From contig AP026127.1 of assembly GCA_030295235.1 (NCBI GenBank), positions 1,240,001 through 1,304,000 on the forward strand: DNA of 64,000 nucleotides, in the 5' to 3' direction. The translations under genes and the position numbers were made by a program. Origin of the DNA: Fistulifera solaris (Eukaryota). Each line of letters begins with the position of its first letter. Position 1 is the stretch's first letter. The notes below the pieces were generated by a model. The model worked only from the letters and a program-made list of their open reading frames with translations, did not search any database and was not told where the DNA came from. Below, in pieces: positions 10,165 through 62,163 of this stretch.

Positions 10165-11290
10165 ATGGCGATTCGTCCAGAAATTCTGGACCAGAGTATT
10201 TTAGATCCCACCGAAAGGCTGTGCACTATGCACGTTCCAAAACTTCTTGAGACGGTATTTCTGGTCATACAGAAATTCTATGGTAATCCAGAAATTCTGG
10301 ACCAGTTCTTTCGATCCTACCAAAACGCTGTGCACGTTCCAAATATTCTGAACACGTTGTTTGGGATTTGGGATCATAACGAACAAAAGTTGACTTTCCA
10401 GAAAGTCTGGAAAAAGGTATTTCTGGTCATACTGAAATTCTATGGTAATCCAGAAATTCTGGACCAGTTCTTTCGATCCTACCAAAACGCTGTGCACGTT
10501 CCAAATATTCTGAAAACGTTGTTTGGGATTTGGGATCATAACGAACAAAAGTTGACTTTCCTGAAATTCTGGAAAGTTATCTCTGGTCATAGAGAAATTC
10601 TGTGGTGGTCCAGAAATTCTGGAACAGTGTTTTTCGATCCCACCGAAACGCTGGGCACGTTCCAGGACTTCTTGAGACGGTGTTTAGGATCATAACGAAA
10701 GAAAGTGCACATTCCAGAAATTCTGGAAAATTGTGTTTCGGATCATAACTAACAAAAGTTGAATTTCCAGATATTCTGGAAAGTTATCTCTGGTCATAGA
10801 GAAATTCTGTGGTGGTCCAGAAATTCTGGACCCGTGTTTTTCGATCCCACCGAAACGCTGTGCACGTTCCAGGACTTCTTGAGACGGTGTTTAGGATCAT
10901 AACGAAAGAAAGTGCACATTCCAGAAATTCTGGAAAATTGTGTTTCGGATCATGACGAACAAAAGTTGACTTTCCAGAAAGTCTGGAAAAAGGTATTTCT
11001 GGTCATACTGAAATTCTGTGGTGGTCCAGAAATTCTGGACCAGTTCTTTCGATCCCACCGAAAGGCTGCGCACGTTCCAGGACTTCTTGAGACGGTGTTG
11101 AGGATCATAACGAAAGAAAGTGCACATTCCAGAAATTCTGGAAAATTGTGTTTCGGATCATAACGAACAAAAGTTGACTTTCCTGAAATTCTGGAAAGTT
11201 ATTGCTGGTCATACAGAAATTCTGTTGTGGTCCAGAAATTCTGGACCCGTGTTTTTCGATCCCACCGAAACGCTGTGCATGTTCCAGAAC
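10165..11290. repeat. Tandem satellite of ~52-bp monomers organised as ~162-bp and ~207-bp higher-order units, core CCAGAAATTCTGG
   Basis: Monomer starts GGTCA/GATCA at 10263, 10313, 10372, 10425 ... 10585, 10637, 10688, 10741, 10792; units nearly identical. Confidence 0.95.
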
Positions 11291-11539
11291 TTCTTGGGAC
11301 CCACGATTGTTGCGAGCTGGTTGGTTACGAAGCTGTTATCGGACTTTCTTCATGTGTCGCAAAGTATTTCAATTACCGAGTTTTTCGATAAAGCTACCGT
11401 TGTTCGTTTCTGGCCCGCGAGCGGTGGCGATAAAACTATTAATGAGTAAAATTTTTCTTGATACTTGTAATTAAAATGCTATCGACACGAAAAATCCATC
11501 ATCAAGTATCATGCGGCGGTGACTGTAGATGCGACTCTA

Positions 11540-39791: not shown

Positions 39792-40215
39792 GTGAGAACA
39801 TAATAAGCTTTAGATCTATAATTGTAATGAGACTATAATCAGATGCGAAAAAGACAAAAAATTCGCGCTGCAGGCTGCATGTCCAAAGGATTGATTCAGT
39901 CTCATGACTGAAATCCAGTCGTGGACTGGTAGAACCAACTGTTTGTATCATAGTAAAAACATAAAGGTCTGGGCTCGAAGACATTGCCGGCTGAAATCGC
40001 AATTGCGCGAAATTCCAAGGTGAGAGCATAATTACCTTTAGATCTGTCATTGTAATGAGACTATAATCAAATGCGAAAAAGACAAAAAAATTCGCGCTGC
40101 AGGCTGCATGTACAAAAGGATTGATTCAGTCTCATGACTGAAATCCAGTCGTGGATTGGTAGAACTAACTTTTTGTATGATAGTAGAAACATGAATAAAG
40201 GTCGCAGGGCTCGAA
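39792..40215. repeat. Tandem dimer of a ~229-bp unit carrying the CATGACT-N7-AGTCGTG dyad
   Basis: Units start at ~39792 and ~40020 and are highly similar. Confidence 0.9.
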
Positions 40216-47854: not shown

Positions 47855-48545
47855 ACAGATCCTGAAAAACTGAAATAGGTGGTGTATGGATCAGACAAAG
47901 ATTCTGTTCTTCCAGAAATAATAAAAAAAAGATTTAATTCGTACAAGTAGTTGGTGCGTCGAACAGAAAATCTGTGACGGATTCTAGAAATCCTGGAATT
48001 GTCACAAGGCATTTTAAATCAGACAGAGATTCTGATGAATTTCCAGAAATTCTGAATTAGGTGTTCATCTTCATACGGAAATTCTGTCTGAATTCCAGAA
48101 AGTCTGAAATAGACGGCTTGGGTCAGACAGAGACTCTGAGGTTGTTGCAGATTTCTGGACTAGGTGCTTTGCGTCGAACTGTTACGATTCCGGAAAATCC
48201 GAAATTGTCACAAGGCAGTTTGGATCAGACAGAAATTCAGATGTAGTTCCAGAAATTCTGGATTGCTTTTCCATGTTCATACGGAAATTCTGTCTAAATT
48301 CCAAAAAAATCTGGAATAGGCGGTAAGGGGTCAGACAGAGATTCTGAGATTGTTCCAGATACTTTGGAAATTGCAGTCTAATCTAGTTGGTGCGTCCAAC
48401 AAAAGTTTGGGACGATTCCAGAAAATCTGGAATTGTCACAAGACAGTTTGAATCAAACAGAAATTCTGATTCAGTTCCGGAAATTATGGATTCGTGTTCA
48501 TGTTCATTTAAGCTTACGGGAATTCTGTCTTCATTCCAGAAAAGT
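47855..48545. repeat. Diverged satellite array of the same ~52-bp monomer family as 10165-11290
   Basis: Recurrent TCAGACAGARATTCTG and TTCCAGAAATTCTG(G); higher-order period ~206-225 bp. Confidence 0.85.
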
Positions 48546-49200
48546 AGTTCAGAATCATCATTGTTGCAACTTTATTTACCCGTAATTACAATCAATACTC
48601 GCAGTTGAATGACAATGGACGGACGCGAGAGACGCAAAACAAAACCCTTTGTTTTTTCGGTTCATGACTACTGTACAATCCAGTCTTGGCTGGCGTAATC
48701 CAACACTCCGTTTCATAGTAAAAACTCAAGCTGTCGGTCCTCGGATTTTTTCGATGTGAAAATAGAAGAAACTCTTAACAAATAGTTCAGAATCATCATT
48801 GTTGCAGCTTTATTTACCGGTAATTATAATTATATTTGCAGTTGAATGACAATGGACGGATGCGAGAGACGCAAAACGGAACCCTTTGTTGTTCGGTTCA
48901 TGACTACTGTACAATCCAGTCTTGGCTGGCGTAAACCAACACTCTGTTTCATAGTGGAAAATCATGGTGTCGATCCTCTGCTTTTCGACGTGAATAGAAG
49001 AAACTCTTAACAAATAGTTCAGAATCATCATTGTTGCAACTTTATTTACCGGTAATTATAATTATATTCGCAGTTGAATGACAATGGACGGATGCGAGAG
49101 ACGCAAAACGGAACCCTTGGTTGTTCGGTTCATGACTCATGACTACTGTACAATCCAGTCTTGGCTGGCGTAAACCGACACTCTGTTTCATAGTGGAAAT
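48545..49200. repeat. Tandem ~235-bp repeat, about 2.8 copies, related to the 39.8-kb dimer
   Basis: Units start TAGTTCAGAATCATC at 48545, 48783 and 49014; contain CATGACT...AATCCAGTCTTGG and CATAGT(A/G)(A/G)AAA. Confidence 0.92.
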
Positions 49201-49362
49201 TCAAGGATTGATTCATGAAAAAGGCGCCAGCTACAATAAGTACCAGTAAAATCTTTTGCGTTGTTGCATCGCAGTCAATAATTATTATTCAACACTCAAC
49301 ACCACAAAAATAGGGGCCCAATTTTTTTTTAAAACAATGTTCGTTTGACCTTGCTTCGAACC

Positions 49363-50994: not shown

Positions 50995-52706
50995 CTATTT
51001 CGATTCACGCATTTTCTTCGCCTTGCGAGATACGGGGACGTGTGTAGCCGTCTGCTCCTGCTCCTCATCTACCTCCATGGGTTGCGCGACTCCATCTTCC
51101 TCGGTGTCGGCGTGCAAGAAATCGCAGAGGACGTCAGCATGGACGGAGAGCAACAATGCACCATACTGAAAGTTGCTTGTGGCGCGTTCGACCAATGTCA
51201 CCCCCACCAAGGAGGATCGCACTGACGGAGACGCTTTGATAATCTCAGCCGACCCATTATAAAACGCATTCAACGAGTAAAGTTGTTCAGTACTGGGTCC
51301 GTTCGAGCATCGGTTATCTTCCTGATCCAAGACAGTGATCTTTCGGTTGTGGTGTAATAGCTTGTCGAGCCAAGCTGGTGCGCGCCTCAACCGTTCAAAG
51401 CCGTCCTCGTCGTCGCTGTCATCGTCATCGAAATCCGAGGATTCTCCAAACACTGAATCATCCATCGGTGGGTATGCACCGACTTTTAGCGTACGCAGTC
51501 CCTTGTGCGACTCCATACACGGGGTCATAATCTTGATGATCGAGCTCGTATCAACGAGGAAATCAGTACCGCTCAAGTCTAAGTGATTCAACTTTGCGTT
51601 GGCCGCGATCACGCGGTTCACAGCTTCTGCCACTTGCGCTATCTTGTGGCCTTCAAACAGCACACCGTTTCCGAGGTCTCGGTGATAAAAGTTGAAGTAC
51701 AAGCGTTCAAAGTGTCCGATCTTTGCCAAACGATGCAAGAACTTGACGAGAAATTTACAAAAGTCTTTTACCTCGTCCAGGTAGATAGTCATGCGAAGGT
51801 CTTTGGCATGAATCTTGAGGAAACGAAAATTCATTGACAGCATGTGCTTCGCATAGACTTTGTAAGCGAGAGCCTTGGTGTTCGCCGAGAACGGAAGAAG
51901 AGCACATTCTTCACCAACTCTGCCAATCTGGAGTGTTTCCACTACTTTTCCCATTTGCAAGAGCCTTTCAAAATTGTTGCGGCTGAAGGGCGTAGTGTCG
52001 TTGTCATAGCTGATTGAAAGCGAGCCAAACGAAGACTTTCGATTCGCAAGAGCGTTGATAAAGGCCGTTCCTTCGTCTGTAAATCGAAACCCCTCCTTAC
52101 ACTTATGATTTTTGACCAACTGCAAGTTGATAGGCTGAGGCCGGGTCGCCAGAATAACGGACAGTTCGGGGCTCCAGGTTCCTGTGTACAACTCGAATTC
52201 GCGTTGCGGATTCGCATCCAATATTTGAGCCAGTTGATTTGGCTGCAGAGCGGCAAAATCAAAGCCGTGCTTCTTGCATTTGTCATCCTCAAACGTCCAA
52301 GCTTCCAGATAGACTTTCGTTTCCTTCAACTCCTTGAGCGACCAAAGAAAGACGGCGGTTTCCAGAGCACTCTCTTTCGTTTTTCCGTAGATCGCACATA
52401 GAAGTCGAGTGCGGCCGACCCAAAGCACAAAGCAAACATTCGGCTCTTCAAACTGTACACGCATAGGCTCATGGTAATCGTTCTCGCAAACACAAATGAA
52501 GGTGTTATTATCACGCCAGGTAGCTGCCTTGCTGTACGACTTCCAATCCAAATCGTTCAAATGCGTTGGTTCCCGTATCATTTTATACATCTGTAAATCA
52601 TTTCCGTCTTTGTTTTCGGTCGGGCGAAACGACTTTTGCTCCGACGATAAATGCTCTTTCGGAATGAGTTGTAAAGAGGATCTTCCTGCATCATTTGTTC
52701 GTTCAT
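50995..52706 (-). CDS. RNI-like/LRR-like hypothetical protein
   Basis: About 570 aa with LNHLDLS and LRTLKV leucine-rich units; probable ATG at 52706 requires one missing T near 52673; paralog of 37730-39304. Confidence 0.75.
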
Positions 52707-52817
52707 TTTGATCTTTGCAGCGGCTGTAACGAAAGTGTTGATTGATGGCAATTGTGAGACGATGCAAAGCTCGCAGTCTCGCAAACTTCCGTTATGACCG
52801 CACGCAATGAAGGGACA

Positions 52818-53236
52818 AGTCAAGGTAGAATGAATAACAGCAATAGCAATGTAGCTTAGTTCTCTACCTTGTGTGCCGTTTGATGCGCTGTAGAGTTGTC
52901 CAATCTCTGCAACACGAACGGCCAACGAGGTCGAAACTATCGATGGTCAAAAAGGGGATAGAGTGCAGCTTTTCAGCAATTTGCAAACTATAAAGGGCTT
53001 GGGAGCGAGAGCATCGACAATGCACGACCAGTGTCAAGGAACTCGACACCAGCTGACATGACACGATGCTTCCTCCCGTTAAAGTCTACTTATTACTCCA
53101 GTGTTAGGTGCGCGGATGCTTGTTCTCTCGTGATCACCTTAGTTTTCCTTACACTGGGATTTCACATAGATACTCCATGTCGCAGCGCTCGTCTCGAGGT
53201 AGTTTTTCACTATGGATTGGACAGTCCACTTTGACT
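52818..53236 (-). repeat. 3' LTR (419 bp)
   Basis: Matches 60166-60585 except for the length of one A run; termini AGTCAA...TTGACT. Confidence 0.97.
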
Positions 53237-53245
53237 CTCCCTCTC
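53237..53245 (-). other. Polypurine tract GAGAGGGAG
   Basis: Directly abuts the 3' LTR. Confidence 0.9.
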
Positions 53246-53521
53246 ATCCAAGCACGTGACAGTGAAGTAATTCCGGTACGTCATCTTGTTTCTCACTTAA
53301 ACAATCTTGGAGATTCGATACCGGTTGCCCTCTTATACAGATATTCATTCAAACGTTTTCTTTTCGATCTTCGGACAACAAAAAAAAACATCGAAATGAA
53401 TGAGACCGCACGATGGTCAAGTTCAAACAACAAACGGGCTCTTGTTGCTCTACGTCTTGCCAGGTCTCCACAAATATGTAAGTAACGGTCAGGAACAAGT
53501 AAAGTGACGCTTTGTGCGCAA

Positions 53522-56500
53522 CTACCAGCCTTGGACAAGGCGGCGGTTGTTCACGAAAGCATCTCTTGGCAAAGGCTTCGTCAGGTAGTCGGCACGCTGC
53601 TTTATCGATTCGACTTTGAGCAGCGTAAACTCCTTTGCATGTTGCCAAAACCAGTGCCACTTGGTGAGGAAGTACTTGGTCCGATTGGTGATGCGTTGGT
53701 CGCGAGCGAGGATCAGGGCACCTTGATTGTCTTCGAAGGCCCTCGCCTGAATCGTCGTGTCGACTTCCATTGGGAGGTCGAGACCGTCAACAATCTCCTC
53801 CAGAAGCCATTTGACCGGAAGGAACGCTTTCAGCGCGAATGAAAGGGCGGAGTACTCGGCTTCCAATGTGCTGAGGGAGATGTGCGTCTGCAGAGTCGAC
53901 TTCCAGATTGTGGGACAATTGCAGATGGTGACGATGTATCCAGTTCGCGACTTTGCTGCATCGAGCGCTTCGCGAGTCTTCCGAACCATGGAGCGAACAG
54001 TAATCTGCATCGACAAACAGATCAACAATCAACCGTTTCGACGGGCGGATGATGGTACCTTCGTTGCGTGTCCCTTTCAAATATCGAATGATGGTTTTGA
54101 CTGCTGTTGCATGAGACTGTTTCGGGTTCGAGCTGAATCGGCAGACCTGGCTAACTGCAAAGGCGATATCCGGGCGACTATTGGTTGAAAGATACAACAG
54201 CATGCCGACAACTGAGGGGTAGCTCCAGTCTTCTTGCATCGGAAGGCCTTCAGAGTCGGCTCCAAGAGCTTGTTGGGACGTCGGAAGATTATTCGGCTTG
54301 CAGTCTTCCATCTTTGTTGTTTTGAGAATCTTGTCAATGAGACCGGTCTGGGTAAGTTTGAATTCGTTGTTGTCTCGTTGCTCAAACTTAATACCGAGAA
54401 ACTCAGCGAATGTCCCTTCTTTTGTCAGGCTAAATCCGAGTCCTTGCAACTGCTCAATCAACTCATCAATCAACTTGGGGTCCTTTGCGGCAATTCCGGC
54501 GTCGTCGACATACAAAACAATCATCATGTTGCCCTTGTAGAAGAAGCACGGGTCGTATTTCGTTTGTTTGAAGCCGAGTTTGATCAAGGCTTCGGAGATA
54601 CAGTCGTACCAGAGCTTGGGACTTGTGGAGCTTCCATAGAGCGACTTCTTCAGTCGAAGACAAGTTCCAGGACCTTTAGTAGACACAAATCCGCGCGGCA
54701 AATGAATCCAAATCGGGTCCTTTAACACAGCATGAAGGAAGGCGTTGTTGAAGTCGATGGAGAGCGTCGTCCATTGCAGAATCAATGACAGGATCAAGAA
54801 GATTCGAACGGAGCTCCAGGCTACAACAGGTGCGTAGGTCTCGGTGGATGGCTTTTCTTCTTCCAAATCTCCTCTAACACAGATTCTTCCTTTGTATTTC
54901 TTAAAGCTTCCATCGGGTGCGCGCTTGCGGCGGAAGTTCCATGTGCAGGGAATGATCTTGCCTTTAGCATCCGACATCGGAACTTCGTCCCAAGTCTCGT
55001 GTTCGATCAGCGCGTCGATTTCCTGTTGTGCAGCGCGCTTCCAGTGTTCTCTTTCCGTCGGATTCTTCATTGCTTGATCGTATGTCAATATATCTGGGTT
55101 TGTGTTGATCTTGTTGGCTTTGAATGCGTTTAAATCCGTCGGAGTGTTGTTCAGGTGAGTTTCCAGTGCACCCACAAACATCTCATGGAAGTGTTCCGGT
55201 GCATCGCCGATCCCATAACTCTGAAACGATTCTTCTGACTCAGCAACGTTTATTTCATTGATCAGGCGGTTGGGAGGACGGCGATTGCGTGTGCTTGCTC
55301 GTGTTGGAACGGGAACAGGCGGAGGTTTGCGTTTAGGGGTCGAACTGGCGGGAGCTGGGATTTTTGTAACGGAATTTTCAGCCTCTTTCTCCCTCTGGAT
55401 CGTGGGCCGATAGTCCGGAGATACACTTGGCTCCCCTCTGTTGCATGGAACTTGGCGAAGGCGAAAGCTCCCTCTCTTGAAACGGTGCAGGAATCGGCGC
55501 CGGAAGCGGTGCTAGCTCCCTCTGTTCGAATACGGGGTCCATTGGTGGAGCCGAAGGCATGTTAAAGGGATTTTTGTAGGCGGTAACCGGAGGTCCCTGA
55601 GGCTTTGCTGAGAAGGGAGCTTCGACAGGCGCGGTAGGAGCGGGCAATTGCGTCGTTTTTGGGAGAAAAGATGTTGCTGGTGGGGAGATTTCGAGTGGCC
55701 GAAGCGGTAGTTGATCGAAGGCGGCTTCCACTCTTTCTCTGTGCTCTGCCGCTTTATCTTGCGCCGAATCGGGATATATTGTGTCGTCTGCGGCGTCTTC
55801 ATCGTCATCTACGACGTAGTGATGAGTTGATTCGCCGAACAGCTCGTTCCATTCTCGAGATTGAAAGTCTGGAAGTTGAGAGGGATCCGAGGTGACTGTG
55901 GTGAACAAGTCGTCGAATACGACGTGGAATTGCGCCGTGATGGCTCCTGTTTCCAAGTTTAGGCACAGGGGAACCGAAGTAGCATGGTTGGCACTCACTC
56001 CCATGTACATCTGGCGAGTAGATCGAACGCTCCAACGTGGTAACTTCTTTCCATCGGCGATTTTCTTGTCCAGAACATAAACCGGGCATCCCCAAACATG
56101 TAAGTCATGAAATCGAGCGTGTGGCCACCGCGACTTTGTGAAGAGATCAGACGGACTCACACCGCTATTTCCTTCGGTTGGGACATGGTTGTAAAGGAAG
56201 ACAGCGTGTTGGACCGCCAGTGGCCAGAGTTTGGTGTCTGTGACTTCGGGCCAGTGGATGCTTGCATGAAGCATCATTGCTCTTGCAAGCGACATCACAG
56301 TTTGAATGCTTCTCTCGGCGATTCCGTTGTGGTGATGCGCTCCAACACCAGCAAAGCTTGAAATCTGTCCAAAGTTCTGGAGATGAGCGGTGTATTCCGT
56401 GGAGGTGAATGCGGAGCCATTGTCAGTCAGGTAAGTTTGCGGGATCACTCCAAAATCTCTCCAGTGGTCTTCAAAGTTCTGTTTCGCATCGATGGTCTCA

Positions 56501-59500
56501 TGAGTGTTTAAATGTACTTGTTCTTTGATAAACACATATCCAGATGCATGATCCACAAAGATTGCGCCGCCAGAGTACTGAGTCTTCGGGTCTTCTTTGC
56601 CTTGAGTGTGGGTAAGTCTCCCTTTCGTTGAACAGACAAAGTGATCGACACTGACTCGTTGTCCTGGCAGCAAATGGTCCGCTTTCATTACTCCCTGGCG
56701 ATCTTTTACGACTTTCTTTGTTGTTCCTGGGGCCGATCTTTGCCGCTGCTTTGCGAACTGGCACGCGGCACACATAGGGAGGTGAGTGCTCGACTTCGAT
56801 GCTTGAATCTGTAGCTGTCTTGTCTTCTCACTGTGCGCTAGAACACCTGTGCGCAAAAGGAACTGCGTTTGTTTCATTGAAAGGTGCCCAAGTCGGCAGT
56901 GCCACTTCAACAATTCACGCTGTGCTGGAGAAAGGTTCATGTTGCTGTTGCTTGCACATGAAATCGAAGCGTTGAGCGCCTGGTGGATCTTGGAGTCTGT
57001 GTCGCGGGAATACGCCGTCGTCGAAGGAAGATTTGATTCTGAGCAGATGTAGACCGTGATTCCGCGTCGAGTTGGTTCATCTTCGCTTGTATTGGCGCCG
57101 CTGAGCGTCATTTTCAGCTTATCATGATGAATGGTCTCGTCTGGGTAGGTGTTGAGCAGACTGTTAATGCTCAGCAGTCGAACTTTTGACGATGGAACCA
57201 GAAGAGCCGGTACTTTCAAGGTGCGTAGCATGCCGTCATGATCCGTGAAACTCCATGCGACTGTTCCAACTCCAGCAACTGCTGTCTGACCATGAATACC
57301 CGCGATCTTCATCTCTTTTGCAGGTCTTTCGATTGGTCCAACAAAGTCTGCGCGCGAAGGTGAGATTGAGATGCTCGCTCCTGTGTCCCAAATGACTTTG
57401 AACTGACTCTCTTTGTCAAGGTTCTCTCGAACTGCAGCAGGAGAGGTGAAAGCGGCCTTGAGTGCGGCCGGGATACTCAAGAAAGGTGCACTCAGAGCTG
57501 CCACATACGCGTGAGCAGTTCCAGTAAAGGGTTCATCTTCTTTGGCTCCGCGAAGTGGGCTGTAAAGGTAAGCGCTTTGAATATCAACTTCTGCGCGTGG
57601 AATCCTTGACATGACGTTTCCTAACTCTCTCAGTTCCTCCAAAGACATAGCTGGTGCCAATGGCTTTGGGATTTTTCGGCTTGGTCTTGTTGTGATAAGA
57701 CCAGAAGCGTTTCTTGGGAGGCGGTGGAGCCGGCGGAGCGGAGGGACGCAATGAAAGTGGTTTGGGCGACAGGCATCGCATGAAGAACAATTCGCTCGAT
57801 AAAGAGAGGTGTTTGGTGTGTGTTGAGGTGCCTGCTTCTCCCTCTCTTCATGGGATGACTGAAGCTTGGCAGGACGGAAGCGGATGGCGTCATCGAAGTC
57901 ACGAAGGCGTGCTTGGAGCGTTTCCTCGGCTTCCCTGTCCCGTGCCGCCTTATCCTCGGCCACCGTAGCTCGAGCGGCCTTCAATTCACTTTCCTTGGCG
58001 CGTTTCATCATGAAATCGTCACGGGACGCGTGTCGTCGTCGATTTGGCGCAGGAGGATGGCGTTTGAACCACGGTCGCATCTGGGAGACAACTCGGTCGC
58101 TTGCAACGGTATTGAGATGGCGCTTGCGACGTTTGGCAAAGGCTGGTCCCTTGCGGCGAGCCCAACGCGGAAGAGGCTCTGGAATTCGATGCAGATGAGC
58201 GTTGGTGCGGCGAACATGTTGACGGTGCGCCACCAACAACAGAAGAACAACAATCAACCAGGCAATCGGTGCCAGGAGCCAGGGAAGCGGGATCTTGTCG
58301 AGACCGAGACCAAAGCCAACAAGAGAAGGCGGAAGAGCGAACATTGGGCGGAAGGCCAGTAGTGCTTGAAAGGGATTTTCCTCTGGAGCGGGCACAAGTC
58401 CAGCATGCCAGGCGGAGTGATTCATGACAATATTCGCCTGGTGTTTTGCATCGCCGTTTGTGGGACTTTTGTGTTCGCTTGTACCGTGTGTGGTCGACCA
58501 ACGGCCGCACTTTTCGCACCAGTACCATGTTCTGTCTTTCACTTTCTTGGTGGGACTGTCATTCGGGCCAGGAGGCGTGCGTTTCCACGGATTGCGATTC
58601 TCGTGGCGCTTTGGATTCGTGTTGGATCGCCGCTGCTTGTCTTGAGACCGTTTCTTCGTCGTTTGAGTCTCCTTCTTTGGTTCCGGACAATCGCGAGCCA
58701 TGTGCTCAAGCGACCCGCAATTGAAGCATCCATCCTTCTTCGTCTTCGCGTTCTGATGCTGTGGAACCAGAGCAAAGGCTCCAAACTTTGCCGGGGCGGC
58801 TTTTGAATCCGGATTGTGCCGTGCCGGTGGCCAACGCCCGCGAGATGCAAGAGTGCGGTACTTGTCGGTTGCAATTCGACAAATATCGCGAACTGTCAGC
58901 TCTTCTTTGATGATTCGAGCTGTTACATCGTCCTGGGTCAGAAAACCGATGTCCAAAAGCGTTTCTTCGAGCTTGTCGTGCAGGATACGAAGTGAATGCT
59001 TGTATTCTTCCAAAGGCTGACTCCCACCTGCGGAAAGAAAGGCTTCCAGGATGATCAGGCTCAAGTTGTGCTCATACTGGCCAGCTATCTCCAATTCACG
59101 GACATCTGCGCGGAAATCGATTGCCATTTGGGCTAAGTCTTGCCCAGGATACTGCGAAGGATGGCGATTGCGGATCTTGTGCTTTATGGTGTTGCAGTAG
59201 TCAATAGACACGTTTCTCACAATTTTCATCAGGTGTAACCAATATAGCGGAAATGGGTCTTCTTTCATCGTCACGCCCGTAGTTCCGTAGCTAGACTGTC
59301 ATCAACGCTGTTTAAGAGAAATAGTTTTGCCTCTGTATCGTTGTTGACGTCGTAGGTGTCGTACTTAGTGAGCTGAGGTGCCATTAGCGTCGGCAGCATC
59401 TTTACTTGCAGTCTTGGATGGTTCGTGACACAAGTTATCATCGTTTTCGTGTCAGCAGGGTTGGGGACGCACGATATCGAAAACAGACCGTGGAGTTCCA

Positions 59501-59915
59501 GATGTTCCAAAATCTTGTGTTCGAAGGTTAGACGGTTGTCGCTTGCTTTGAACTTGGGCACTAGTCCTTCAATTCGCTTCGAGTGGGACTTCTGTGCCGC
59601 TGTGATACTCGTACCCCTAAACTGTCCGGGATGATTCGGAGGTGCGGAGTCGTGGGGACCAGTCCATTCGGAGTTTGGATGTGTTCCACACCATGCGACG
59701 GTCAGGCCATTGGGCATTTCGACTAAGCCACCCATGATAGGCTTGTCGACTTCGACCGTTTTCTTCGCCACTTCAACCGGAGGTTGCCCTAGCATCTGTC
59801 TGAGAGCAGCTGTCAGGGAGGCAATCGCCGCGTCCGTAGTCTCGGATTCGACGGGATTCGGAGCGTCCGGATCACGCTGTACGTTGCCGGTGTCGTCCTG
59901 GTTCTCTTCCTGCAT
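53522..59915 (-). CDS. Copia Gag-Pol polyprotein with three frame breaks (~59275, ~55434, ~53965)
   Basis: CCHC knuckle CFNCGSLEHMARDC, protease WDTGAS, WHCRLGH/CAAC, integrase VSVDH/TDNG/NGIAER, RT LYVDD, RNase H VDAD/EAEY/EDN/QRADYLTK. Confidence 0.95.
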
Positions 59916-60149
59916 CGTTGGATCGTCTTCTGAAGAGATATCAATTTCGTCGGCCGAACCACTCGTCGGAGATCGGTGAGTCGCTTTCACTCGAAGTCGC
60001 TGTGCCTGGGCCCGGAGGAGTCCCTTGGCGAGGTACCTGTATCACTGTGTGAGACTGGGAAGGGTTGACTTGGCTTCAGGGCGTCCCCTGAAGGTAGCGT
60101 CAGAAAGTCGGTGACTTTCGGGTGGTTTCTCTAAAACACCGGAGAGGAG

Positions 60150-60165
60150 GCTGGGCTCACTAACC
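60150..60165 (-). other. Primer-binding site complementary to the anticodon arm of initiator tRNA-Met
   Basis: GGTTAGTGAGCCCAGC immediately after the 5' LTR; equals GGTTATGAGCCCAGC plus one extra G. Confidence 0.75.
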
Positions 60166-60585
60166 AGTCAAGGTAGAATGAATAACAGCAATAGCAATGT
60201 AGCTTAGTTCTCTACCTTGTGTGCCGTTTGATGCGCTGTAGAGTTGTCCAATCTCTGCAACACGAACGGCCAACGAGGTCGAAACTATCGATGGTCAAAA
60301 AAGGGGATAGAGTGCAGCTTTTCAGCAATTTGCAAACTATAAAGGGCTTGGGAGCGAGAGCATCGACAATGCACGACCAGTGTCAAGGAACTCGACACCA
60401 GCTGACATGACACGATGCTTCCTCCCGTTAAAGTCTACTTATTACTCCAGTGTTAGGTGCGCGGATGCTTGTTCTCTCGTGATCACCTTAGTTTTCCTTA
60501 CACTGGGATTTCACATAGATACTCCATGTCGCAGCGCTCGTCTCGAGGTAGTTTTTCACTATGGATTGGACAGTCCACTTTGACT
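60166..60585 (-). repeat. 5' LTR (420 bp)
   Basis: Direct repeat of 52818-53236. Confidence 0.97.
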
Positions 60586-61052
60586 GGACATAAATAATGA
60601 GAAAGATACGCTTTTTGATTATGTACGACATTGTACGGGGTCTACGTGAGTCCCGGTTTCGTAGTATCGACTGTAATCGAAAGTGTATCACACATCTTCC
60701 AAGACTGCATTTTAGTCATGAATTAATATTCATGCGAGCGACAAACGCTTGCCTACAATTTGTTCGTTCAGGTCCATTTGTCGTTGGTTGAAAATATATA
60801 GTTTTTGGAAGCGTTTGCATTACACATCTTTCTATTTTACATCGAGAGTCGTGCGAAACGTTGTTCTTTCGTGTTTACTATTGACTAAATTGTTGTCACT
60901 TGTCGCCACGACTGCATGTCAGTCATGAGTCGTCGTCATGATCGTCGGCGCATTTTTCCTCTTGGTCGGCGCATCAATGGCAATGACAATGATGCAATAT
61001 TTTCACGTTCTTATTATCTTCGACAACACTGCCGAAGGAAAGAGCCTCCGCT

Positions 61053-61886
61053 ATGCGACTGTTGCCTTTTCTATCTCGTACAGCAATCACCTTCCTGCGA
61101 GGAGGCGCCAACAATAGTACAATGAGCACACACGAAGGATCCTCGTTGTCCATCGCCCCGGCATCATCTCTACTCGACCGTCTGCCTCCGCTCGACCCGA
61201 CAATACATCAACGGCGTATCATACTTGTTCGTCACGGAGAAACAGACTGGAACAGACGAGGTCTTATGCAGGGAGGAGGATTCGATATTGAATTGAATGA
61301 ACACGGCAAACGACAAGCGCGTCAGGTAGCACACGAGTTGGTGACTCTCATGGCGAACCGAGAAACGGTAGTATTGGCGTCGTCGCACCTGCAACGCGCT
61401 GCACAGACCGCGGATGTCTTGCACGAGATCTGGAAAACACAACATGCGCACTTGGAGGTTGCACGAGTCACCTTAAAAGAATTCGGTGAAATGCGATTTG
61501 GTAATCTGGAAGGAAATGCACTGCGAGGACCCGAGGCCACAGACGAAAGTAAGGCGTTATTTCGTGACAACAATTACAAAATGACACAAGACAAACACGT
61601 GTGTTGGCCGGGAGGTGGAGAGTCAACGGCAGATGTGGAAACGAGAGGTTTGCAAGGACTCGACGCGCTGACGAAGCAGTATCCCGACGCGGATTTGCTC
61701 GTCATTGTCGCCCACGGACGGTTCAATAAAATACTCCTGGCGTCGCTCCTTTACAAAAATGTGCTACAACATTCAGAAATCGAACAAGGAAACACGTGTA
61801 TCAATGTAATTGATCAGCGAAAGGATGGGAAGTACGAACAAGTTGTTCTAAACTACTTGGGACACCTTCGTAATGAGTGTGATTGA
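61053..61886 (+). CDS. Histidine phosphatase / phosphoglycerate mutase family protein
   Basis: LVRHGETDWN, SSHLQRAAQTA, EMRFGNLEG, GGGES, VAHG; N-terminus resembles a mitochondrial presequence. Confidence 0.92.
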   Translation: MRLLPFLSRTAITFLRGGANNSTMSTHEGSSLSIAPASSLLDRLPPLDPTIHQRRIILVRHGETDWNRRGLMQGGGFDIELNEHGKRQARQVAHELVTLMANRETVVLASSHLQRAAQTADVLHEIWKTQHAHLEVARVTLKEFGEMRFGNLEGNALRGPEATDESKALFRDNNYKMTQDKHVCWPGGGESTADVETRGLQGLDALTKQYPDADLLVIVAHGRFNKILLASLLYKNVLQHSEIEQGNTCINVIDQRKDGKYEQVVLNYLGHLRNECD

Positions 61887-62163
61887 TTGTCGAGGGGTTG
61901 AATCTTTGATAGTGGAGAAAGTTTGCCGATCTAGACGACGTGTTTATGACAGAACGACACTAATACATGGAAACAAGGAGGTCGCTGATGCACCAGTGCC
62001 CAAGTATTGTCGCGATTCTGATGAAAAAGACATCAATTTGGAGGCAGCAAAATTTACTCTTGGACGCTGATTGGGTCTATCTCGCGCAACCTCTGCTAGT
62101 ACATGCAACATGTTTAACCCTATAGATTACATTAACACTAACACACTTCCGATACCATATAAA

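Follow-up and report, generated by a model that had tools for sequence, protein, structure and literature searches.

A Ty1/copia element whose termini are AG...CT is inserted in a 64,000-nucleotide stretch of Fistulifera solaris contig AP026127.1 (assembly GCA_030295235.1, positions 1,240,001 to 1,304,000), hereafter the window, to which all coordinates refer. From a repeat search of 51500-62000 and an alignment of its long terminal repeats (LTRs), we delimited a retrotransposon of 7,768 bp on the minus strand at 52818-60585, and both the AG...CT ends and the limits of this Copia element are confirmed. It very probably represents a diatom-associated Ty1/copia lineage with integration ends of the AGT...ACT type (here AGTCAA...TTGACT) instead of TG...CA. 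The AG...CT ends do not appear to be private to this copy; the trait seems to reach relatives at ~55% reverse transcriptase (RT) identity, at least at the U3 end.

Boundaries, priming sites and coding content

The repeat search recovered two pairs of direct repeats, 52815-52957/60163-60305 at 99% and 52949-53236/60298-60585 at 100%, with spacings of 7,348 and 7,349 nt. In a global alignment, the LTRs (419 nt against 420 nt) show 0 substitutions and a single 1-nt gap at offset 131, where A5 stands against A6. Read on the plus strand, all four LTR ends agree, starting AGTCAA and ending TTGACT; the motif is palindromic, and its reading is therefore unchanged in the minus orientation of the element. 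The TG...CA dinucleotides, which are usual for Ty1/copia although not strictly defining, are thus replaced by AG...CT at all four ends. Identity between the LTRs ceases exactly at AGTCAA and TTGACT (a versus c at -1 of the left edge, c versus g at +1 of the right edge). Among all boundary combinations within ~12 nt and duplications of 3-7 nt, GGACA was the sole 5-bp duplication abutting the edges of LTR identity; other short matches near the ends (e.g., AATGA) demand boundaries beyond the repeats. The terminal inverted repeat is perfect over 6/6 positions and matches at 9/11 when extended, and the 24-nt start and 23-nt end of the LTR occur exactly 2 times each in the window (0 expected from 100 shuffles). 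The alignment and the enumeration of boundaries therefore bear out the AG...CT termini and the GGACA target-site duplication (TSD) of the original prediction, whose span of 52813..60590 had the correct limits but took in both duplications.

The polypurine tract (PPT) and the primer-binding site (PBS) both adjoin the LTRs on the internal side, as had been predicted (Table 1). The 12-mer GAGAGGGAGAGT bridges the PPT/LTR junction at 53234-53245, and the first two bases of the LTR, AG, prolong the purine run of the tract. The PBS begins right after the final T, which supports the U5 boundary. It does not, however, look like a site for the 3' end of a tRNA, and would rather be an anticodon-stem-loop site resembling those of copia and Ty5, with one extra base. 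The PBS of L002, one of the related loci described below, is GGTTATGAGCCC, the complement of which reads GGG-CTCATAA-CC, i.e., a seven-base loop with the anticodon CAT and the adjoining G/C stem bases. Three G:C pairs are a mark of initiator tRNAs. Half-tRNA priming in copia and use of the initiator tRNA-Met's anticodon stem-loop as primer in Ty5 are described in the available text of PMC5371799 and bioRxiv 10.1101/2025.04.25.647736, and we infer that the PBS of the window may be of this half-initiator-tRNA type. Its extra base relative to L002 would place a bulge five base pairs from the 3' end of the primer, and reflects either a real fault in the copy or a mistake in the assembly. A 14-mer from the PBS of the window had no match in 7/7 of the related loci fetched.

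All long reading frames of the element lie on the minus strand. Pfam searches found zf-CCHC, gag_pre-integrs, rve and SH3_retrovirus in a frame of 1,298 aa and RVT_2 (PF07727; E=3.2e-41, 142 bits against a cut-off of 31.6) in the following frame, and an RNase H-type C-terminus stands in a third frame downstream of the RT. The domain order is protease (PR), integrase (IN), RT and RNase H, and the DD35E integrase motif (D..D-35-E) is readable in the translation. This order, together with RVT_2, two LTRs with a short TSD, a PBS and a PPT, is that of Ty1/copia (Pseudoviridae). A protein search recovered P0124, an intact gag-pol of 2,132 aa which is 100% identical over the 511 PR-IN residues queried and colinear with the element; tblastn of P0124 against the window matched this locus only, in four frame pieces. 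Domain order, RVT_2 and colinearity with P0124 uphold the predicted Copia identity.

Judged by its LTRs, with 419/419 positions identical plus one indel, the insertion is very recent. The predicted youth of the element holds in this respect, but three 1-nt frameshifts interrupt the gag-pol when P0124 is taken as the reference: one base missing at ~59274-59277, one extra G in a G-run at ~55434 and one extra C at ~53960 (within 53952-53968). The copy is therefore not autonomous as assembled. Four indels without any LTR substitution are an odd mix for decay after insertion, and two readings fit better, namely that an intact sister, of which P0124 is an example, supplied proteins in trans to mobilise a defective template, or that the indels are consensus or assembly errors in the repeat. 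Overall we consider mobilisation in trans the most likely, though in detail the two readings stand level. Long host open reading frames (ORFs) are intact in the same window (e.g., 1,085, 994 and 915 aa), which argues against a generally error-ridden assembly.

Table 1. Features of the Copia element in the window
Feature	Position	Strand	Basis or remark
TSD GGACA, left copy	52813..52817	.	identical to 60586-60590, abuts LTR edge
3' LTR, 419 bp, plus strand AGTCAA...TTGACT	52818..53236	-	repeat search, alignment
PPT GGATGAGAGGGAG, directly upstream (sense) of 3' LTR	53237..53249	-	sequence reading
RNase H/C-terminal pol, fourth frame piece (P0124 aa 1985-2132, 98.6%)	53525..53968	-	tblastn
RT (RVT_2), third frame piece (P0124 aa 1497-1990, 99.0%)	53952..55433	-	Pfam, tblastn
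C-terminal part of gag (CCHC knuckle), hydrophobic segment, PR (DTGAS) and IN (DD35E), second frame piece (P0124 aa 216-1496, 93.5%)	55435..59277	-	Pfam, tblastn
gag N-terminal part, first frame piece (P0124 aa 1-216, 97.7%)	59274..59915	-	tblastn
PBS GGTTAGTGAGCCCAGCC, directly after 5' LTR	60149..60165	-	resembles GGTTATGAGCCC of L002 plus one extra base
5' LTR, 420 bp, plus strand AGTCAA...TTGACT	60166..60585	-	repeat search, alignment
TSD GGACA, right copy	60586..60590	.	identical to 52813-52817, abuts LTR edge

LTR ends in related elements

Relatives were sought by an RT-alignment scan of bacterial and archaeal genomes, which gave 7 loci (L001 to L007) on contigs filed under metagenome-assembled genomes (MAGs); these contigs are presumably eukaryotic contamination. 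RT identity to the element of the window is 43-56% for five of the 7 loci and 30% for L007, an ordinary Copia element that serves as the distant control. The junction of pol and LTR is readable in four relatives on unrelated contigs (L001, L002, L003 and L006; 54-56% RT identity), L004 and L005 stopping short of it, and in all four AGT comes after a purine tract that ends GGAG. The junction reads GAACGAGAGGGAG then AGTCAAGAGAC in L001 and GGACGAGAGGGAG then AGTCAAGATAC in L006, both continuing AGTCAAG; it reads GTGTGAGAGGGAG then AGTTGGAAG in L003, continuing AGTTGG, and TTAGGAGGAG then AGTTATAAT in L002, where GGAGGAG is followed by AGTTAT. The exact 12-mer that bridges the junction in the window has one occurrence each in the window, L001, L003 and L006, always where pol ends and the LTR begins, and the remaining LTR sequence is unalignable by eye. 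The control L007 has CAAGGGGGAG then TGTTAC. A maximum-likelihood tree built from 24 RT/RNase H rows places the window (with P0124), L006, L001 and L003 on separate ingroup branches and L007 far outside on a very long branch; since 10 of its 21 inner branches lack resolution, no more can be read from it than that AGT starts extend beyond the window's own family.

The evidence on the 3' (U5) end is thinner than that on the U3 end. In L006, CTTGACT stands ~480 nt downstream of the AGTCAAG start and is a perfect 7-bp inverted copy of it; a second candidate end, CTTTACT, follows 13 nt further on, just before GGTAGC, and under either candidate the end would be ACT. The L001 contig stops on ...CAGACT, which would fit an assembly break at the LTR edge but is only suggestive. 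Both L002 (1-7036) and L006 (1-4677) run from RNase H through one LTR to gag-pol, and L002 starts and ends in the same RT sequence; these contigs, filed under bacterial MAGs, are therefore circularly permuted or collapsed assemblies of whole elements (tandem elements, LTR collapse or circles).

Several observations weigh against AGT...ACT ends as a trait of the lineage. In L002 (56% RT identity), ...CCACAGCA with a canonical CA stands directly before the PBS, and TGTTGC occurs 13 nt upstream of the purine tract, so that this relative may have TG...CA or mixed ends; its boundaries cannot be fixed, as the circularly permuted contig holds a single collapsed LTR. The original prediction had staked its case on other members not ending TG...CA, and this mostly holds (AGT after the purine tract in 4/4 relatives), but L002 with its CA before the PBS departs from it. 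The LTR starts of L001, L003 and L006 were inferred by homology to the junction in the window and not from two LTRs with a TSD, and the readable relatives are four only, all from bacterial or archaeal MAG contigs. Neither the repeat search nor tblastn with P0124 found further copies or solo LTRs of the family in the 64-kb window. The primer assignment is conditional because the PBS of the window has an extra base and no tRNA genes were found in the window. Lastly, the comparison of integrase residues near the catalytic Glu, which the original prediction had suggested, gave no residue correlating with the changed ends.

A rival idea is that only the AGT of the U3 end is a lineage trait, with a variable 3' end (ACT here, CA in some relatives) and hence asymmetric or mixed ends. 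L002, with CAGCA directly before a clear PBS and AGTTAT after its purine tract, is what this idea would predict, and asymmetric ends are known elsewhere, e.g., TG..GA in Tos17 (available text of bioRxiv 10.1101/137141) and the TGAG and TTCG entries in diatom tables (PMC8147415). We nevertheless regard it as unlikely, as the two ends of the element in the window match perfectly as a 6-bp inverted repeat, the start of L006 recurs as a perfect 7-bp inverted copy, the L001 contig ends GACT and the boundaries of L002 are themselves uncertain. It is considerably less probable that the AG/CT bases are an accident of this insertion, i.e., unprocessed or extra bases left by aberrant priming or integration in a family whose ends differ. 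Although the copy is otherwise defective (three frameshifts and the extra base of the PBS), trimming 1-3 bases per end yields GTCAA..TTGAC, TCAA..TTGA or CAA..TTG and never TG...CA; AGTCAAG follows the same purine tract in the unrelated contigs L001 and L006; and the AG/CT bases are present at the internal as well as the external edges of both LTRs in the window, so they were replicated.

A further alternative is that the boundaries are misplaced, with true LTRs of the TG...CA type and a different duplication, and chance short matches do occur near the ends, such as AATGA at 52806-52810 and 60596-60600. Such alternatives need LTR bases which are absent from the internal LTR edges, whereas LTR identity stops at AGTCAA/TTGACT, GGACA abuts both edges and PPT and PBS adjoin the internal ones; we consider this explanation highly improbable. 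Least credible of all is an assembly or sequencing error. The sole difference between the LTRs is a homopolymer length and one frameshift is an extra G in a G-run, both of which are typical long-read consensus errors. Errors of this kind are indels, whereas a change from TG/CA to AG/CT needs substitutions; moreover, the long host ORFs of the window are intact, and all four ends agree with one another and with relatives from other data sets, as the original prediction had argued in part from the four ends.

Known systems and the proposed mode of integration

Among known elements, the closest comparison is with the CoDi families of diatoms, especially the long CoDiI type, with which the element shares a diatom host, the Copia-like order of pol, a size within 6.5-8 kb and near-identical LTRs. 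The diatom host, a raphid pennate species near Fistulifera and neither of the two species from which the CoDi families were defined, is indicated by the likeness of a neighbouring His_Phos_1 gene and by named polyprotein matches from Fragilaria crotonensis and Mayamaea pseudoterrestris; named CoDi sequences were absent among the matches listed in protein searches with the element. According to the available text of Maumus et al. 2009 (PMC2806351), 23/26 CoDi families possess a terminal TG/CA repeat whereas CoDi3.2, CoDi4.2 and CoDi4.3 do not, so that some CoDi families (3/26) also lack it. Our literature search on these three families returned the 2009 paper only. In the later tables of Filloramo et al. 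2021, 66/84 loci of P. tricornutum are TGCA and 18 are TATA, TACA, TGTA, TTCG or TGAG (PMC8147415 Suppl. Table 11), while 56/60 loci of T. pseudonana are TGCA and 4 are TGTA, TGGA, TGAT or TGAG (Suppl. Table 10). Unlike our element, none of the 144 tabulated full-length loci is AG...CT (0/84 and 0/60), and 144/144 start with T (PMC8147415). The novelty claimed in the original prediction is therefore reduced by the CoDi families without TG/CA reported in 2009, which the later tables give as TATA, TACA or TGTA, and stands in that these tables hold no AG...CT ends.

The tables themselves may be selective. Filloramo et al. 2021 filtered their candidates with LTR_retriever, as the available part of PMC8147415 states, and LTR_retriever accepts TGCA and seven other motifs, all of them starting with T (bioRxiv 10.1101/137141, available text); an AG...CT family could thus have been dropped. 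This agrees with the earlier expectation that finders based on TGCA would miss the family. Searches of the literature for AG...CT or AGT...ACT wording of LTR ends gave nothing relevant, the matches listed for one of them being to an AGCT motif in work on antibody hypermutation or DNA methylation, with Repbase and Dfam outside the scope of the search; LTR ends are not mentioned in the available portions of an Ectocarpus transposable element paper and of a 2025 diatom transposable element preprint, and a search on Fistulifera gave nothing specific.

Outside diatoms, a PBS abutting the LTR is shared with Drosophila copia and yeast Ty5, and the PBS of L002 is an exact complement of a GGG-CTCATAA-CC stem-loop with the anticodon CAT. 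The LTR tips of the yeast Ty5 family are TGTTG...CAACA (available text of bioRxiv 10.1101/2025.04.25.647736) and differ from AGTCAA...TTGACT, and the PBS of the window is one base longer. LTRs starting with AGT are indeed known in insects, as had been noted, from the Zam/errantivirus group of gypsy elements (AGTTAYRK...TAAYT), and the same source, as far as its text is available, gives starts of TGTT for Sire, Retrofit and Ty1 (PMC3601003 Table 3). The AGTTATAA of L002 and the AGTTGG of L003 resemble the 5' motif of errantiviruses, and the window has AGT...ACT. Unlike the errantiviruses, which belong to Ty3/gypsy with the order PR-RT-RH-IN and an env gene, our element has its integrase before the RT, carries RVT_2 and lacks env, the interval from pol to the 3' LTR containing no additional ORF; the likeness of the AGT ends would be convergent. 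Plant Copia elements without TGCA (e.g., Tos17 TG..GA, AtRE1 TA..TA, TARE1 TA..CA) share non-canonical dinucleotides and 5-bp TSDs with it, and elements of this kind are mostly Copia (89% of those classified). In plants, according to the available text of the same source (bioRxiv 10.1101/137141), the first T was reported invariable, whereas here neither outer base is the usual one (A...T); moreover, element and LTRs are long and not short. Non-canonical ends are on record for Copia elements, for CoDi families and for errantiviruses.

The features of the copy are consistent with the following mode of replication and integration. Minus-strand synthesis would begin beside U5 from an initiator tRNA-Met fragment that pairs via its anticodon stem-loop, as in copia and Ty5. 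Plus-strand synthesis would start from the tract ...GAGAGGGAG, with the primer cut such that the last two purines of the run fall to U3, which then begins AG. The linear DNA product would bear a terminal inverted repeat of 6-11 bp (AGTCAARGTRG), which the DD35E integrase would bind, and the ...ACT-3'OH ends would be joined to the target with a 5-bp stagger giving GGACA; the site before insertion would read ...GAAGGGACATAAAT... with a single GGACA. As in the original prediction, the integrase would accept CT-3' ends.

We considered the residues beside the catalytic Glu as a marker of altered end specificity and rejected them. Those after the Glu are AERSIQT in the window, SERTIQT in Ty3 and AESLIKR in L007, so that Ty3 shares ER(S/T)IQT and L007 differs otherwise. 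The LTR ends of Ty3 are canonical TG...CA. A comparison of the integrase with PDB matched one chain, weakly (E=0.26).

It is the terminal bases of an LTR element that its integrase must recognise, and a change of both outer bases that is conserved at ~55% RT identity amounts to a natural experiment on integrase end specificity. These ends fall outside the plant range, where the first T was reported invariable (bioRxiv 10.1101/137141, available text). Tentatively, and with somewhat more doubt than belief, we suggest that a large and old diatom Copia lineage, with polyproteins of ~2,000-2,150 aa, a membrane-like segment and half-initiator-tRNA priming, has exchanged TG...CA for AGT...ACT at the ends that its integrase recognises, in convergence with insect errantiviruses, and is under-counted in annotations. 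If this were true, the under-counting would be systematic, because common pipelines demand TGCA or a variant starting with T; in diatom surveys, filters of TGCA and its seven variants would drop such elements and bias estimates of retrotransposon load and recent activity. The importance is moderate, as non-canonical ends are already known elsewhere and the mechanism is deduced from sequence.

Polyprotein features and genomic setting

The PR-IN region as query matched 1,363 proteins at E<=0.001 among 6,882 candidates, many of them of ~2,000-2,150 aa and on contigs of ~7 kb. Polyproteins of the lineage are of this length, which is long for Copia. Between the CCHC knuckle and the protease lies a strongly hydrophobic, transmembrane-like segment followed by a basic stretch (~58213-58302, minus strand; P0001 aa 325-354). 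In a Kyte-Doolittle scan (19-aa window, threshold 1.6), such a segment was found in 12/13 lineage polyproteins and was absent from the Copia control L007; besides the window, the carriers are P0124, P0125, P0127, P0130, P0133, P0139, P0160, P0191, P0227, L002 (1389-7034) and L006 (1524-4676). A chromodomain at the integrase C-terminus, which is a CoDi-A feature according to the available text of PMC2774666, had no Pfam match at E<=0.01. Identity to P0124 is uneven, with 93.5% in gag-PR-IN (the differences being concentrated from the knuckle to the protease) against 99-100% in the RT, and this contrast between 55435-59277 and 53952-55433 hints at a possible recombination between subfamilies.

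The flanking genes are eukaryotic and carry the domains Raptor_N, GYF and His_Phos_1. The one with His_Phos_1, at 61053-61886 on the plus strand, shares 87% identity with a protein of Fistulifera solaris and 88-94% with JGI entries. The insertion lies in a gap of ~0.5 kb between this histidine-phosphatase gene and a diverging minus-strand ORF of 590 aa, which ends at 52767. It sits ~46 bp upstream of the outermost start that the 590-aa ORF (no Pfam match) could use and ~460 bp upstream of the phosphatase gene. Elsewhere in the window, outside the element, there are three tandem-repeat arrays at 10254-11300, 47980-49224 and 39885-40195, with periods of ~207, ~230 and ~230 nt, respectively.

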